In this document: in pieces, positions 2,205 through 63,283 of the stretch
Position numbering within the stretch: position 1 is the stretch's first letter
How the letters are laid out: each line of letters begins with the position of its first letter
DNA from: Octopus vulgaris
Lineage: Eukaryota
Assembly: GCA_951406725.2 (NCBI GenBank)
Contig: OX597832.1
Coordinates: forward strand, 13,268,001 to 13,332,000
Length of the DNA stretch: 64,000 nt
Direction: 5' to 3'
The notes under the pieces: model-generated
Databases searched by the model: none
What the model was told of the DNA's origin: nothing
The model's input: the letters and a program-made list of their open reading frames with translations, nothing else
Position numbers and translations under genes: made by a program

Positions 2205-2825
2205 TACATTCAGAACCAACGCCTTGCAAAATACCTTGGGTTATTTTCTGTTAAAACAGAGGCTGGTCGCAACGCGATCAACTATATTTACACTCTGGTG
2301 TTTGTTACTCATTTTAAGGATTTCTTTCTTAATTTTTTTTAAATTAACGTCTTTCCTGTGAGGTATTTTCAAAAGATAGTATCTTTAAAGAGAAGAATGG
2401 AGCTAATGGTGATACGAATATTACTCCTTGAGAATTCGACTAGAAAACTTATAGCGTAATTTAGTTTCGTATAAGTAAGCCGGGGAGAGTCAGCTGAGAT
2501 ATATTTGTATAGGAATAAATTATGTTTTGAGTGCTTAGAACATCATAGCCGATTTCAACAATCCATATTTATGAAATGCAGTCTTGTTTACATATCCGTT
2601 AAAATTATGAGTGATGTATGTGGGAAGAAAGCGTTGCGTCCATGGTTGCAGGCTTTGATAGGCTTGAAGAAATATTCTTCTTAAAGTTATCATCTTCATA
2701 TGCTTTATATTCTTCACTTATCTCATATGCCTTATGTATTCCTTAGACAGCAGTAATTTACATCAGCATGAAACAATACAAACATAAGCAAAGAAGGAAT
2801 GACAAAAATAATATTGTTATACTAT

Positions 2826-3215
2826 TTTACTTGTTTCAGTCATTTGACTGCGGCCATGCTGGAGCACCGCCGTTAGTCGACCAAATCGACCCCAGGACTT
2901 ATTCTTTGTAAGCCTAGTACTTATTGTATCGGGCTCTTTTGCCGAACCGCTAAGTTACGGGGACATAAACACACCAGCATCGGTTGTCAAGCGATGTTGG
3001 GGTGAGAAACACAGACACAAACATGTACATACACACACATATATATATATACAACGGGCTTCTTTCAGTTTCCGTCTACCAAATCCACTCACAAGGCTTT
3101 GGTCGGCCCGAGGCTATGGTAGAAAACACTTGCCGGAGATGCCACGCGGTGGGACTGAACCCGGAACCATGTGGCTGGTAAGCAAGCTACTTACAGCAAA
3201 ACCACTCCTACGCCT
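2826..3215 (-). mobile_element. SINE family A, full length
   Basis: Complete head-to-tail match to the other family A copies. Confidence 0.9.
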
Positions 3216-4689
3216 ACTGTTAAGCCTAATGTTGATTCGGGCGGGAAAAAATAGTTATGACGCAAAATGTACTTAATCTTAATAAGAAGCGTAGTGTACC
3301 TGCGAGAGAAAAGGTGTTTTAAAAATGTAATCGCTTTATAGCTCTTAGGTTTACTTTTACAAACAGTAAATAACAACTCGTTGCCAGAGTATAGCGATCT
3401 ATTGATAGAGAGAATTTATATCTGATTCACTTAACACTGCGTAATATAAAATTTACTCGAATCTGTGAGAACGGTTTAGGTATGCAACAGATGTATATAT
3501 TTATACCCACAACAATACTATAAAACTAAATGCACTCACCAATGTTTTAAATATTAACATAAAACATCAGTAAAAAAATACTTAAGTTAATAGCATACGA
3601 CACTGTACTGTACCACAAAAGCATGACATTGTAGTAAAAAAAAAAAAAAAATTCAAAAATTGAATGAAAAAAAGAAAGAAAGTAATATCAGAATTGAATT
3701 GCAACAAAATAAATAAATAAACGATTAATAATAAACAAATAAATAAATAAATATACACCGCTTTTACTCCAAATGATACTCACATCAGATAATATACACA
3801 CGTTTCACTGCAAAAAAATAAATGAATTTTCCTTATAAAACTAACGAACATGTTCTAAAGAAGATAATCAAATAAAATGTTCACACTTCACCATCCTTAT
3901 TGACATTTAACATTCGTTATATACAAAATAAATTCTGAAAGATAGGAACATTTCTTTCAAATAACAGACATATATCTCCGCAACCAACGCAGCAGAGTTA
4001 TAAGAAATAACACATTAAACAACATCACACACTCATAGAAAATGTATCTAACATTAAGATAGAATCAGTGTATTGAATATTTAAATCGATACAAATAGGA
4101 AATGCTTTAGAATTAATAGTATGATTAGGAGGCAAATACATGACGCTTGATTGTGAACCGATAGTTCTAATTTATTTAGAAAGCAGAATTCTGTTATAGT
4201 TAAATCCCTTGATTTTATCAGAAACAGTTTTTGCTAAGTGTTTTGAGGTTGTTGAATATGTATCCACATGAAATTTGTGATGTGGAGAGGAAAAACATTT
4301 ACTGTTCTTTCGTTCTATTAACATTCGATCGAAAGAAACTCAATTTAATGTTCCATCTACAATGCAATACATTCAGCCATTTATATAATACACTTAAATA
4401 CACTAACACTGATAGAAAATGTATTTCCGCTGAATATGTGTATGTAAATTATAAATTAGTTTGCTAAGTATTCGAGACTGGCAAAAATTTCTGCCTTGAT
4501 TTGGCGATACTGAATACAGAGGCAATAAAATTGGATTAAACTTATAAACTATTTCTAATTTCATAAATGTAATTTACGAGGCCATCACCGCGAATAGGCA
4601 ATTTGTGCTTTTTGCGAGAAATTGATATTCATTGTATATCTCATTATATTACTGTAGCGACTCATTAGCAAACTTGACTAGATACGCAG

Positions 4690-7045
4690 CTGCATTTCTT
4701 CAGCTGTTTTCCAATGCCTCTGAGGTCGATATTCTTTTTCATCCTTTCTAGGTCGATGAAATCAGTACCAGATGAGCACTGGGTTCATTGCATTCTACTA
4801 GCTTCTTCCCCCAAAATGATTTGCTTTCTGACTATAGCTGAAAGGATTATACTCCAGGTTTCAAAAAATTTATCAAAAAGGCTAACAATTGAGGAGAAGG
4901 TTGCAGCTCGATTGCATCGACCACAGTTTCTAATTGGTATTTATTTTTTGAGGACAATCAACTTAGGCGGAATTTTATCACAGAAAATAAAGACGGACGA
5001 AAAGCTTCTAAGCATTTCCCCCAGCGTGCTAACCATTCTGAAACTTAGTTGTCTTAAAGGATAATATTACTGATTTCTAGGCAGAAGGAGGGAGCCAGTT
5101 GATTAGTTCAATCCCAGTACGCAACTGGCACTTAATTTATCGACCCCAAAAGGAAGAAAAGCAAAGTCGACCTCGGCAGTATTTGAACTCAAGACGTAAA
5201 TTTTTAGACGAAATACCACTAAGCATTTCGCCCGGCGTTCTAACGTTTTTGCCAGCTCGCTGCCTTCTGGTACTTCTTTTATTGACACTGAAAATAATCA
5301 AAGACAAAGCTGACCTCGGCCTAATTTGATCTGAAAATGTAAAGACGAACGTAGCCAGTTTGGATTATTGAACGGCGTTGATCACTCATTGATGCCTGTC
5401 AAAAGAGACGAAGCTTTAATTTTTTTCCAAATTTATTAGGCCAACTTCCATGAATAAATATTTCTCATATAACTCAAAATAGGGCGGCGTTCTGGCAAAA
5501 TATTTAGCACGACAGACAAAAAAAATGCTTGGATGCATTTTTTTCCAAATTACATTCCGGGATCAAATGTCGTGAAGGTACTGTTTACATTTCATCATTT
5601 CGGGGTTAATAAAATAAGTATCAGCTGAGCACAGGGATCGATGTAACTGCCATACTCTTCCTGATAAAAAAAATTGCTGGCATTTTCCAAATTATTGAAG
5701 GAATATTACTGAAGCTAACAATCTTGCTTTAAATTGTTGATTCCAGATCAGATCTTGTATTTTCATGATAAAGATTCTTATTTCTTTACTGCCCCCAAGG
5801 TGCTACACACAGAGGGGACAAACACGGACAGACAAACAGATTAAATCGATTATATCGACCCAAGTGCTTAACTGGTACTTATTTAATCGACCCTGAAAGG
5901 ATGAAAGGCAAAGTCGATCTCGGCGGAATTTGAACTCAGAACGTAGCGGCAGACGAAATACCTATTTCTTTATTACCCACAAGGGGCTAAACACAGAGGG
6001 GACAAACAAAGACAGACATAGGTATTAAGTCGATTATATCGACCCAAGTGCTTAACTGGTACTTATTTAATCGACCCTGAAAGGATGAAAGGCAAAGTCG
6101 ACCTCGGCGGAATTTGAACTCAGAACGTAGTGGCAGACGAAATACCGCTAAGCATTTCGTCCGGCGTGCTAACGGTTCTGCCAGATCACCGCCTTAGTGT
6201 GGGCATTTATATTGGTTTCAGATTTTGGCTCAAGGCTAGCACATTTGATGGAGGGTAAGCAGATTACATTGACCCTAGTGCAGAACTGGTACTTATTTTA
6301 TCGACCCCAAAGCGGTGAAAAACAATATGGACCTAGACAGAATTTGAATTCCGAACATCAAGACTGATGAAAAATGCCTCTAAGCATTTCGCCAAGCCTG
6401 CTAACGAATCTATCAGCTCACCGTATTAATGTGGTCAGAAATATTCCTTTCTGCTCTAGGCACAAGGCCCGAAATTTTGGGGGAGTGGGGGACAGTGGAT
6501 TAGATCGACTCCCGTATGCAACTGGTATTTGATTTATCGACTCCGAAGGATGAAAGGCAAAGTCGACCTCGGCAGAATATAAATTCAGAATGTAAAGACA
6601 GACGAAATACCACTAAGAATTTCGCCCGGCGTGCTGTCGTTTCTTATTTCTTTATTGCCCACAAGGGGCTAAACATAGAGGGGATAAACAAGGTCAGACA
6701 AAGGGATTAATCCGATTACATTGACACCAGTGCATAACTGGTACTTAATTTATCGACCCCCAAAGGATGAAAGGCAATGTTGACCTCGGCAGAATTTGAA
6801 CTCAAAACGTAAAGACAGACGAAATATCTATTTCTTTACTACCCACAAGGGGCTAAACACAGAGAAGACAAACAAGGACCGACAAACTGATTAAGTTGAT
6901 TATATCGACTCCAGTGCGTAACTAGTACTTATTTAATCGACTCCGAAAGGATGAAAGGCAGGATTTGAACTCAGAACGTAGCGGCAGACGAAATACCGCA
7001 AAGCTTTTCGCCCGGCGTGCTAACGAATCTGCCAGCTCGCCGCCT
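4690..7045. mobile_element. Cluster of SINE family B copies (degenerate monomers plus minus-strand multimers at ~5778-6195 and ~6445-7045)
   Basis: Repeated ACTGGTACTTATTTAATCGACCC..GGATGAAAGGCAAAGTCGACCTCGGC..ATTTGAACTCAGAACG motifs. Confidence 0.85.
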
Positions 7046-28065: not shown

Positions 28066-28137
<72 letters not shown>

Positions 28138-28153
28138 GTATATATATGTATAA

Positions 28154-28241
<88 letters not shown>

Positions 28242-28377
28242 GGCTGGTGACACAAACTTTCATTCACACTTTGAATTTCGTGGTACTGGTAATGCTTTGG
28301 CTCGCTCTGACACTGAGTTGAGATGATGCCTTCTAGTATCCCAAAATTTAATATACAATTATTCATAATTGTAGTAT

Positions 28378-28469
28378 CCTACGCTGATGAGAAAAGAAGT
28401 TTGGGTAAGGTAGAATTATCTAATTCTTATGCTTTCCTAAAACTTGATTTCGAAATGTACGTCCGTAGG
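28378..28469 (+). ncRNA. Type I hammerhead ribozyme, long stem II, predicted GUC cleavage after 28463
   Basis: CCTACG CTGATGA GAAA..(AAGTTT/AAACTT, AGAATTA/TAATTCT hairpin)..TTTC GAAA TGTACG TC CGTAGG. Confidence 0.85.
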
Positions 28470-28960
28470 TGACTTAAAATTATATGATAGATTGCCGTCA
28501 TTTCATTCTCTCTTACCTGTCTGTGTTTGCCATTCAAGTGCTGTATTTTTACTGAGATCTCCATCTTAGTAGAAAGAATAGCTACAACTCTTTGACTGCT
28601 ATTTCTAAATTCGGTGTGTGGTGAGGCAATTCGTTGCTAAACCCTTAATTGCTTAGTATTACTTAAATTTTCCTCGAATGAGGCTTTTACATGCCGAAAT
28701 CTACTTGGTGTAATTAATAATTATTCCAAATTAATTAATTTCACCCTTTATTGTTACTGATAACCATATTTTATCCCAGTAAATGACCACAGCATCTTGT
28801 CTTGGCTACACGCGGGTGGAAAGGGGCTGGTGACACAAACTTTCATTCACACTTTTAATTTCGTGGTACTGGTAATGCTTTGGCTCGCTCTGACACTGAG
28901 TTGAGATGACGCCTTCTTGCATCTCAAAATTTAATATACAATTATTCATAATTGTAGTAT

Positions 28961-29052
28961 CCTACGCTGATGAGAAAAGAAGTTTGGGTAAGGTAGAATT
29001 ATCTAATTCTTATGCTTTCCTAAAACTTGATTTCGAAACGTACTACCGTAGG
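28961..29052 (+). ncRNA. Second hammerhead copy with a mutated cleavage triplet
   Basis: Identical core and stems, but GAAACGTACTAC in place of the consensus GAAACGTACGTC. Confidence 0.7.
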
Positions 29053-29244
29053 TGACTTAAAATTATATGATAGATTGCCGTCATTTCATCCTCTCTTACC
29101 TGTCTGTGTTTGCCATTCAAGTGCTGTATTTTTACTGAGATCTCCATTTTAGTAGAAAGAATAGCTATAACTCTTTGACTGCTATTTCTAAATTCGGTGT
29201 GTGGTGAGGCAATTCGTTGCTAAACCCTTAATTGCTTAGTATTA

Positions 29245-29304
<60 letters not shown>

Positions 29305-29308
<4 letters not shown>

Positions 29309-29711
29309 CGCAGGAGTGGCTGTGTGGTAAGTAGCTTGCTAACCGGTCGCATGGTTCCGGGTTCAGTCCCACTTCGTGACATCTTGGGCAAGTGTCTTCT
29401 GCTATAGCCCCGGGCCGACCAATGCCTTGTGAGTGGATTTGGTAGACGGAAACTGAAAGAAGCCTGTCGTATATATGTATATGCATGTATGTGTTTGTGT
29501 GTCTGTGTTTGTACCCCTAGCATTGCTTGACAACCGATGCTGGTGTGTTTACGTCCCTGTCACATAGCGGTTCGGCAAAAGAGACCGATAGAATAAGTAC
29601 TGGGCTTACAAAGTATAAGTCCCGTGGTCGATTTGCTCGACTAAAGGCGGTCCTCCAGCATGGCCACAGTCAAATGATTGAAACATGTAAAAGAATAAAA
29701 GAATAAAAGAA
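29305..29711 (+). mobile_element. SINE family A, full length
   Basis: AGGCGCAGGAGTGGCTGTGTGGTAAG...GGTTCAGTCCC...tail (TAAAAGAA)n. Confidence 0.9.
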
Positions 29712-29836: not shown

Positions 29837-30218
29837 ATCAACAATCAAGGAACGGCCATAATAGGCCATTCACCCACTAGAAATAACAGCCAAAGCTTCA
29901 ACCGCAAATAAAAATTAATTCCGTAAACCAGGAGAAAATTTAAAAAATTTAAAAAATTTAAAAAATTTAAAAAATTTAAAAAATTTAAAAAATTTAAAAA
30001 AATTTTAAAAATTTAAAAAATTTAAAAAATTTAAAAAATTTAAAAAACCAGGAGAAAATTTAAAAAATTAAAAAAAAACAAGGAAAAAATTTAAAAAAAG
30101 GTAAATGTTTTTTAAATTTTCTCCTGGTTTACGGAATTAATTTTTATTTGCGGTTGAAGCTTTGGCTGTTATTTCTAGTGGGTGAATGGCCTATTATGGC
30201 CGTTCCTTGATTGTTGAT
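29837..30218. repeat. 111-bp inverted repeat around a 9-bp minisatellite (TTTAAAAAA)n, part of a (TA)n-embedded element ~29730-30218
   Basis: 29837-29947 is the reverse complement of 30108-30218. Confidence 0.9.
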
Positions 30219-33957: not shown

Positions 33958-34547
33958 AGACGGCGAACTGGCAGAAACGTTAGCACGCCGGGCGAAATGC
34001 TTAGTAGTATTTCGTTTGCCGCTACGCTCTGAGTTCAAATTCCGCCGAGGTCGACTTTGCTTTCATCCTTTCGGGGTCGATAAATTAAGTACCAGTTACG
34101 ATATAATCGACTTAATCTCTTTGTCTGTCCTTGTTTGTCCCCTCTGTGTTTATCCGCTTGTGGGTAGTAAAAGAAATAGGTATTTCGTTTGCCGCTACAT
34201 TCTGAGTTCAAATTCTGCCGAAGTCGATTTTGCATTTCATCCTTTCGGGGTCGATAAATTAAGTACCAGTTACGCACTGGGGTCGATGTAATCGACTTAA
34301 TCCCTTTGTCTGTCCTTGTTTTTCCCCTCTGTGTTTATCCCCTTGTGGGTAGTAAAAGAAATAGATATTTCGTCTGCCGCTACGTTCTGAGTTCAAATTC
34401 CGCTGAGGTCGACTTTGCCATTCATCCTTTCGGGGTCGATAAATTAAGTACCAGTTACTCACTGGGGTCGATGTAATCGACTTAATCAGTTTGTCTATCC
34501 TTGTTTGTCCTCTCTGTGTTTAGCCTCTTGTGGGTAATAAAGAAATA
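33958..34547 (+). mobile_element. SINE family B trimer within one 17-bp TSD
   Basis: Units start at 34007, 34180 and 34365; GATATTAAGACCTTGTA at 33941-33957 and 34548-34564. Confidence 0.9.
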
Positions 34548-35209
34548 GATATTAAGACCTTGTACTGATGCATATCATATTTTCAACTGTTGAAATTTTG
34601 GAATACATTATGCAACACATATTGTCATTCGTTTTTACAAGGTATGTCATTCAAAATATATATGAATGACATTTATCTCCAATCAAACGCTCACGTTACA
34701 ACCAGCTAGTTTGCATATATAATTAAGCACGCAATGACAGGCAAATTATCTGAGCAGGTAACTCGCATGGAAAATAATTAGTTAATGCTAACAAATTCAA
34801 ATCATTCAGTAAAGCAAATGTAATTGAACAAATCTATTTCTACTGTGAGAAGAGGATTACATTAACCCAATCGTTCAACCTGAATCAGGTCAGGTTGAGG
34901 ACACAACTCTATAATGTCAATTAATTATAATTAGAATTACGCATGCAGTTCAGAGAAGGACGTAACACCACATGTTTTGGTATTTAGTGTTCCCAACAGC
35001 AAGTGAGGAAAACAATTTATTACAATTACATAGTAAGATTATGCAGTATCAAAATCTCCTGTGAGAGCAATTCTAAACTTGCCATTCTTTCTATTATTCC
35101 ACGCTTATATGTCTCCACCCATCTCTATGCATCTATCTCTCTGGCTATGTAACTCCCTCCCTCGCTGTCTCCTTCTCTCTCTTTTTCCTATATATATACA
35201 CACATATAT

Positions 35210-62629: not shown

Positions 62630-63283
62630 ATTTTCTACTCTAGGCACAACGCCCGGAAATTTGTATGTATGCATGTATTTGTGTAAGTATGTATGTATGT
62701 ATGTATGTATGTATGTATATGCCACTTTTTTGGAGAGGATGCCAGTCGATTGGATTGAATCCAGTATGCAACTGGTATTTAATCTATCGACCCCGAAATG
62801 ATGAAAGGTAAAATCGACCTCCGCGGAACTTGAACAAAGAATGTGAAGACAGACGAAATACCTATTTCTTTACTACCCACAACGGGCTAAACACAGAGAG
62901 GACAAACAAGGACAGACAAACGGATTAAGTCGATTATATCGACCCCCAGTGCGTAACTGGTACTTAATTTATCGGCCCCGATGGGATGAAAGGTAAAGTC
63001 TACCTCGGCGGAATTTGTACTCAGAGCGTTACGGCAGACGAAATACCTATTTCTTTACTTCCTACAAGGGGTTAAACACAGAGAGGAAAACAAGGACAGA
63101 CAAACGGATTAAGTCGATTATATCGACTCCCAGCGCGTAACTGGTACTTTATTTATCGACCCCGAATGGATGAAAGGCAAAGTCGACCCCGGCGGAATTT
63201 GAACTCAGAACGTAATGGCAAACGAAATACCATTACGCTTTTCGCCCGGACTGCTAACGTTTCTACCAACTTGTTGCCTTAAC
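62630..63283 (-). mobile_element. SINE family B trimer within one 15-bp TSD
   Basis: AAACCAAAGCTCATA at 62615-62629 and 63284-63298; three core units. Confidence 0.9.

Follow-up and report, generated by a model that had tools for sequence, protein, structure and literature searches.

A dispersed hammerhead repeat family in (TA)n of the Octopus vulgaris genome with the marks of a retrozyme mobilised by Penelope-like elements

Tandem hammerhead repeats set between two (TA)n runs can be read either as terminal repeats (pLTRs) of a coding Penelope-like element (PLE) or as units of a retrozyme, whose RNA would circularise and be copied by a PLE reverse transcriptase (RT). The second reading was proposed in an earlier note on a 64,000-nt stretch of the Octopus vulgaris genome (hereafter the window), and the structure described there was borne out. 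An ungapped comparison at an offset of 583, with which the repeat finder agreed, recovered the 428-bp direct repeat (28238-28665 versus 28821-29248) with 11/428 mismatches, and similarity fell to noise on either side of it. Both ends abut (TA)n runs (Table 1), and the unit, with a GC content of 209/583 (36%), has no ORF, its longest stop-free frame being 69 codons and its longest ATG frame 49. Unit positions q1-583 are numbered from 28238, and the ribozyme cut is predicted after q226. The neighbours of the insertion are a SINE-like repeat beside the right TA run (29307-29710), very highly repeated among contigs, and a MITE-like inverted-repeat element (29837-30218) with 132-nt arms (92%) around a AAAATTTAA tandem. 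Elsewhere, three 184-185-bp tandem arrays of related SINE-like sequence were seen (5779-6146, 34099-34553 and 62770-63231). Nine other long frames of the window gave no Pfam match, and no host gene was identified there.

Table 1. Features of the hammerhead locus, in window coordinates
Feature	Position	Strand	Basis
Left (TA)n microsatellite, target site	28067..28238	.	repeat scan; TA at 125/130 family 3′ ends and at many 5′ ends
Complete 583-bp unit, 5′ turn, family reference	28238..28820	+	unit search and offset comparison
Type I hammerhead, copy 1; intact core, stem III lesion C>T at 28456	28378..28469	+	
Cut-to-cut 583-nt monomer, predicted circle of the ancestor	28464..29046	+	circular folding
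Site S1 (q398-435), first fixed 3′ end and putative RT start	28635..28672	+	family ends
Site S2 (q498-535), second fixed 3′ end and putative RT start	28735..28772	+	family ends
Partial 3′ turn (q1-428), ends at S1, final bases overlap the TA run	28821..29248	+	
Type I hammerhead, copy 2; GT>TA at 29044-29045 removes U16.1, predicted inactive	28961..29052	+	
Right (TA)n microsatellite, target site	29247..29306	.	repeat scan

The two type I hammerheads of the note were likewise recovered, both with the form CCTACG-CTGATGA-(61 nt)-GAAA...-CGTAGG, and MFE folding returned the 6-bp stem I and the long stem II, whose 61-nt length was measured on a family copy. The copies differ in their lesions as described, and the palindromic stem III has the family form ACGTACGT, followed by C. 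No Rfam model matched at gathering score in the window, and no hammerhead appeared even at E<=10, probably due to the 61-nt stem II; the hammerhead call therefore rests on pattern, fold and covariation. The long-stem-II pattern had 3657 exact genomic matches, as compared with 0 for a reversed control, and the family-type pattern had 304, again with 0 for the control; among 100 listed matches to the latter, at least one belongs to another family. At the level of sequence classes, the motif is not due to chance. The strict core was intact in 108/111 full hammerheads from 40 similarity-chosen loci, window copy 2 being one of the three exceptions, and 66/111 had a CCGAUGA core, mostly with an A-to-G wobble in stem I. 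An underpowered within-family test for selection on the core gave 0.10 versus 0.125 shared alleles per site. Between families, stem I is CCTACG/CGTAGG here and CCCATG/CATGGG in sister family B, a compensatory change, while the palindrome of stem III is retained (ACGTACGT here, ACGCGT there). The predicted energy of stem III is -9.8 kcal/mol as a dimer and +2.4 kcal/mol as a hairpin. Self-cleavage of intact family copies is predicted.

A search of the 2.8-Gb genome with the unit returned 2316 candidates, of which 40 were scored, the listed matches being 89-100% identical. An exact 18-mer starting at the cut has 284 genomic copies; this count and the 304 pattern matches are lower bounds that miss subfamilies with variant bases. 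The family is dispersed and non-coding, with several hundred units in (TA)n, and the higher multimers that the note had suggested looking for reach arrays of about 12 units. Copies lie about 0.5-1.5% from their nearest relatives, and the family is young and polymorphic. We analyzed 84 loci, most of them picked by similarity or an intact hammerhead: the window, its 39 best matches, 25 pattern matches on C1-C2 and 19 chosen by hand from the pattern list. Before counting, we discarded BLAST pieces of <80% identity or <20 nt and those lying >40 nt away from the main cluster, trimmed 5-6 columns off either end of each piece, and removed L243, which belongs to another family. L243 (G000:C3:64516322) is an unrelated element between TA runs; its hammerhead has a longer stem II and shares the ACGTACGT stem III. 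Contigs over the unit from four sequencing runs of presumed RNA origin showed no informative joint.

Two sister families were also seen. Family B (L257-L286, L207-L236) has a non-coding unit of ~591 bp, 68% identical to the 583-bp unit, with the same two end sites and a hammerhead cut triplet that ends in UA. Family C (L357-L386, e.g. G000:C6:85976512-85979089) has a period of 545 and 1746 candidates, shares the q317-518 region with the 583-bp unit at 64%, and has copies 99-100% identical; it is probably still active. No ORF link beyond nesting was found in B (60 loci, overlapping sets) or C (30 loci).

We then considered where insertions of the 583-bp family begin and end. Within the 84 loci, 125 of 130 3′ ends lie at TA-rich sequence, and they cluster at two sites, S1 and S2, about 200 and 300 nt downstream of the ribozyme cut. 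Two-armed, head-to-head loci (n = 46) paired S1 with S2 in 38 cases and had another end in the remaining 8, with no S1+S1 or S2+S2 pair, while the one-armed loci (n = 38) ended at S1 in 27 cases and at S2 in 11. Arms longer than one unit made up 69/130 and those longer than two 18/130. No 5′ end fell at the cut (0/130), a count biased by the choice of loci by similarity or intact hammerhead. It is at two internal sites, and not at the ribozyme cut, that insertions start or stop. As the targets are (TA)n, target-site duplications are unreadable. The S1-S2 interval, about 100 nt, corresponds to a PLE-type tail, which according to the accessible part of PMC11167929 lies between two internal RT start sites in vitro, and coding Hydra-type PLE copies (L319, L323) show the same S1-tail-S2 layout and pairing. 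The features of PLE-mobilised sequences are thus present, comprising partial tandems, an inverted 5′ arm, a tail between two 3′ ends and a microsatellite target, and to judge from such marks the family behaves like a non-autonomous PLE passenger.

This resemblance could also mean that the repeat is nothing other than an ordinary pLTR of a coding PLE, represented here by 5′-truncated copies. Coding Hydra-type PLEs do carry similar long-stem-II hammerheads in their 3′ ends (listed for 23/30 endonuclease loci), and their end layout is the same. However, beyond S2 the copies return to their own q1, where Hydra elements enter their ORF, and the unit has no sequence homology to the ends of the five coding PLE families tested (the 781-aa, two Hydra-type and the L254 chimera families among them, along with other GIY-YIG loci), the matches seen being nested family copies. 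The genome is rich in PLEs, among them a 781-aa GIY-YIG family whose ORFs are intact and Hydra-type families of 717 and 896 aa. PLE protein matches occurred in 14/84 fetched stretches, and those within 1 kb were separated from the unit by TA except at L042 and L254. Adjacent PLE pieces at L041, L043, L126, L157, L237, L238, L250 and L252 were set aside as insertions nested in TA, and L042 adjoins a decayed element that carries its own hammerhead. An RT plus GIY-YIG ORF flanked by the unit was found at 0/84 sampled loci, L254 being the one chimera. The note's own counter-case, a unit always found as the pLTR of a coding PLE, was therefore not borne out in the sample (0/84), and we regard this explanation as highly improbable. 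The retrozyme reading gains support from one type I hammerhead per unit, short tandems, dispersed dimers to multimers, low GC, the lack of coding capacity, and a unit that is never a terminal repeat in the 84 loci. On these sequence features, the family joins the animal non-LTR retrozymes as a new member.

What, then, was the template? Genome-wide, the 18-mer that begins at the cut is preceded by the 7 exact upstream bases in 264 of its 284 copies, a loss of only 7% over 7 nt, and the cut was read through without indel or untemplated bases in 30/30 fetched loci. Since cDNA begun at S1 or S2 does not stop at the 5′ end of a monomer after 200-300 nt, the template should be uncleaved, circular or precisely re-primed. 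Haplotypes within insertions were used to separate these possibilities. Among 3712 locus-by-diagnostic-column cells, turns and arms of one insertion disagreed in 34, against a heterozygosity of 0.30, with 55 haplotypes in 78 loci. Turn-specific differences recurred in 3 of 141 cases (4.2 ± 1.9 by chance); three recurrent differences involving a family-B piece in L162 disappeared once only contiguous pieces were kept. Conversely, 46 rare variants, in 32/68 loci, were common to all covering turns, and in 20 loci they spanned both arms; such 'private' variants are rare among the 84 sampled loci rather than in the whole family. This uniformity, the chance-level recurrence and the all-turn variants together suggest that every cycle passes through one unit. 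Comparing within-locus with nearest-locus distance gave no discrimination (23/47).

The base changes themselves provide a further indication. Heavy A-to-I editing is a feature of cephalopods, and A>G accounted for 10/46 shared variants as opposed to 8/179 single-turn variants (Fisher p = 0.0006), or 7/43 after merging three columns seen twice (p = 0.012). Such an excess would be expected if a single RNA template had been edited. Single-turn changes were skewed to T>C (32 vs 8 A>G, p = 0.004), possibly due to misreading of U by the RT or to antisense editing, and this skew could bias the A>G comparison. The A>G sites have a predicted pairing of 0.74-1.0, though most of the unit is paired anyway.

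These patterns bear on the idea that an uncleaved linear multimer transcript was copied from internal starts, with the hammerhead dispensable for mobility. Such a template would fit the seamless read-through of the cut and the S1/S2 ends equally well; minimal stem III hammerheads are described as weak in the accessible text of PMC4209133, and target-primed reverse transcription (TPRT) by the Poseidon PLE in vitro uses unprocessed RNA with no need of hammerhead cleavage (PMC11167929, as far as accessible), which also counts against a circle. But a new mutation or edit in a multimer hits one turn, and daughters should then inherit turn-specific differences, whose recurrence is no more than expected by chance; each of the 55 haplotypes is instead uniform within insertions, and the A>G excess falls in all-turn rather than single-turn variants. 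We consider this explanation unlikely. Alternatively, an RT may have copied a cleaved linear monomer and, on reaching its 5′ end, made a precise jump to a 3′ end on that RNA or on a different one; a circular cDNA intermediate would be a variant of this scheme. It predicts the same single-unit bottleneck, and template jumping is known for retroelement RTs; moreover, templates can mix, as seen in the L254 chimera and in mosaic loci with at least two discordant diagnostic columns (7/64). Against it stand the clean read-through described above, lacking any run-off at the cut, and a resolvable haplotype switch in L034, which lies between q30 and q172 and not at q227, so that we view precise jumping as quite improbable.

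A third possibility is that single pLTR-derived monomers inserted and that tandems arose later by satellite-like local duplication and unequal crossover, the model favoured in the accessible part of a recent preprint (Li, Clavereau & Pollet, 10.64898/2026.07.22.740005). Post-insertion amplification has in fact occurred in the two longest arrays. L038 (G000:C8:3133797-3139510), a ten-unit array, has 10 segments in an alternating ABAB two-unit higher-order structure, and the 12-unit array L066 carries an internal variant in 8/13 segments and differs by 0.25% internally versus 1.1% from its nearest outside relative. Both grew by local duplication and are satellites in the making. Because of this nested duplication, array length alone is no proof of a rolling circle. 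However, typical copies of 1-3 turns showed no such amplification: more than half of the arms are longer than one unit, their lengths are non-integer and their 3′ ends fixed, rare variants are common to both inverted arms in 20 loci, and the two turns in the window differ by 2.6%, i.e., they are not homogenised. As a general origin of the tandems, local amplification is very unlikely in our judgment. An RNA circle is the template that we prefer and consider reasonably likely, while noting as a further point against it that 8/9 Xenopus retrozyme dimers did not cleave (10.64898/2026.07.22.740005, in its accessible part). The note's proposal that the monomer is copied by a PLE RT is supported in so far as PLE-type insertion marks occur together with the signature of a single-unit template.

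The window locus itself is a one-armed insertion of 1.73 turns that is 5′-truncated at TA and terminates in the second copy of S1 (29218-29248). By distance to its relatives it is among the older family copies; its two copies have the q245 and q326 variants in common against the closest haplotype group and carry 4 and 7 variants of their own, respectively, besides these. Hammerhead numbering places the predicted cut of copy 1 after C28463. Since the second site lacks U16.1, sequence and hammerhead rules would allow at best one cut and no monomer, and the locus is probably a decayed insertion from which monomer release is not expected. In a double hammerhead, pairing would still be possible between the intact GAAACG strand of copy 2 and the CGUC site of copy 1, likewise intact. 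When folded as a circle, the 583-nt monomer had an MFE of -140.5, compared with -116.4 ± 5.9 for 40 shuffles.

A possible helper is suggested by L254 (G000:C4:97755500-97761500), where at 2287-4290 a retrozyme arm stands head-to-head with the 3′ end of a young Hydra-like PLE between two TA runs. The retrozyme arm makes two turns and ends at S2; the PLE part, on the opposite strand, comprises the endonuclease end, 3′ UTR, hammerhead and tail. At the joint there is a short rearranged piece with 8 nt of microhomology and no TA between the parts, and both parts appear to end at the distal site, unlike the S1+S2 rule. For the PLE family, matches over the full length stand at 96-99%; the retrozyme arm differs from its closest relatives by 0.6-1.0%. 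With both parts thus about 1% from their own relatives, the two are coeval. The simplest reading would be one event using two RNAs, although two nested insertions with a deletion could have given the same arrangement. We therefore designate this PLE family a candidate helper, on one chimera in 84 loci.

The candidate is 43-86% identical to the 896-aa ORF of L321, in which DKT, CxxC and CxH are present but RWL stands in place of RWK and a clear linker is missing; hence we call the candidate only Hydra-like. By contrast, the 717-aa ORF of L317 contains RWK, DKT, CSCRNKELC, CGLC and CPH and no CCHH, corresponding to the Hydra-clade marks given in the accessible part of PMC8557442 (RWK, DKT, a CxCX5C linker, CxxC, CxH, no CCHH); an alignment to the RT of the 781-aa PLE reached E = 2e-6, and there was no Pfam match. 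L317-L320 represent a young PLE of this kind, in which the ORFs are intact, the hammerhead has CCGAAGA and the tail measures ~68 nt. The 781-aa family (L100-L109, L119) is young and Neptune-like with many intact ORFs; no canonical hammerhead was found in it, and one relative has a variant core, TTGATAA, with a palindromic stem III.

Taken together, we consider it likely that the 583-nt monomer circularises, and likely that an RT-endonuclease of Penelope-like type, probably from the Hydra clade, reverse-transcribes it in trans. A tandem copy would be transcribed, and two of its hammerheads would cut as a dimer via the palindromic stem III, after which the monomer would be ligated into a circle and sometimes A-to-I edited. 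The PLE protein would nick (TA)n on one or both strands and begin cDNA at internal RNA positions, S1 for one strand and S2 for the other. The RT would circle the template for 0.1 to several turns, and the 5′ ends would be joined together or to the target; some arrays would expand later by unequal exchange. The window locus would have been primed at S1 only and have lost its second cut site since. A more far-reaching interpretation, which we offer tentatively and rate at somewhat less than an even chance, is that these insertions are fossils of twin-primed rolling-circle reverse transcription, in which a Hydra-type enzyme used both (TA)n strands and two sites of one 583-nt RNA circle having no sequence in common with the enzyme's own RNA, and in which A-to-I edits became fixed in every turn and drove the evolution of the family.

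The origin of the more-than-unit, head-to-tail and inverted insertions of animal retrozymes and PLEs is under dispute. While the class of elements is known, the youth and polymorphism of this family allow template models to be told apart by haplotypes within insertions, and it gives an unusually sharp genomic test of the disputed mechanism together with exact predictions: cDNA should start at S1 and S2, the circle should measure 583 nt and have a defined junction, and one PLE family is the candidate helper. No published cephalopod retrozyme or within-insertion haplotype test was found in the openly accessible literature searched, and the words hammerhead, ribozyme and retrozyme do not occur in the accessible main text of the Octopus repeat annotation (PMC13282606).

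Compared with the metazoan non-LTR retrozymes, as described in the accessible parts of PMC7229834 and 10.64898/2026.07.22.740005, the family is alike in its dispersed tandem non-coding units with one type I hammerhead each, its low GC, its dimers to multimers, its short palindromic stem III and the presence of PLEs in the genome. Its 583-nt unit compares with 170-400 nt in the former source and 51-972 in the latter. It differs from them in its 61-nt stem II, its strict (TA)n targeting and its two-armed S1/S2 insertions, and the unit has no homology to the sampled pLTRs, whereas 24/57 Xenopus families matched TEs (10.64898/2026.07.22.740005). Published metazoan retrozymes accumulate as linear and circular monomer RNA, while the present family is known from genomic DNA. 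With the Hydra-clade PLEs (Craig et al. 2021, PMC8557442, as far as accessible) it shares (TA)n insertion, a canonical hammerhead, partial tandems, inverted 5′ arms and a one-end tail, but it has no ORF, its tail is longer (about 100 nt vs 30-40) and the whole unit is repeated. The Poseidon PAc element of Anolis (Frangieh et al. 2024, PMC11167929) similarly has two internal RT starts that bound a tail downstream of the hammerhead, and both target strands are cut and extended. PAc is autonomous, its hammerhead cleavage is dispensable in vitro and no circle is reported in the accessible text, whereas the genomic pattern here points to a single-unit template. Short palindromic helices III expected to act as dimers were described for PLE hammerheads by Cervera & de la Pena (2014, PMC4209133, accessible part), who also proposed more-than-unit reverse transcription of a circle, and circle-templated copying by PLEs was proposed for metazoan retrozymes in 2020 (Cervera & de la Pena, PMC7229834, accessible part). 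To the proposal of 2014, the family described here adds within-insertion haplotype evidence that is consistent with the copying of a circle.
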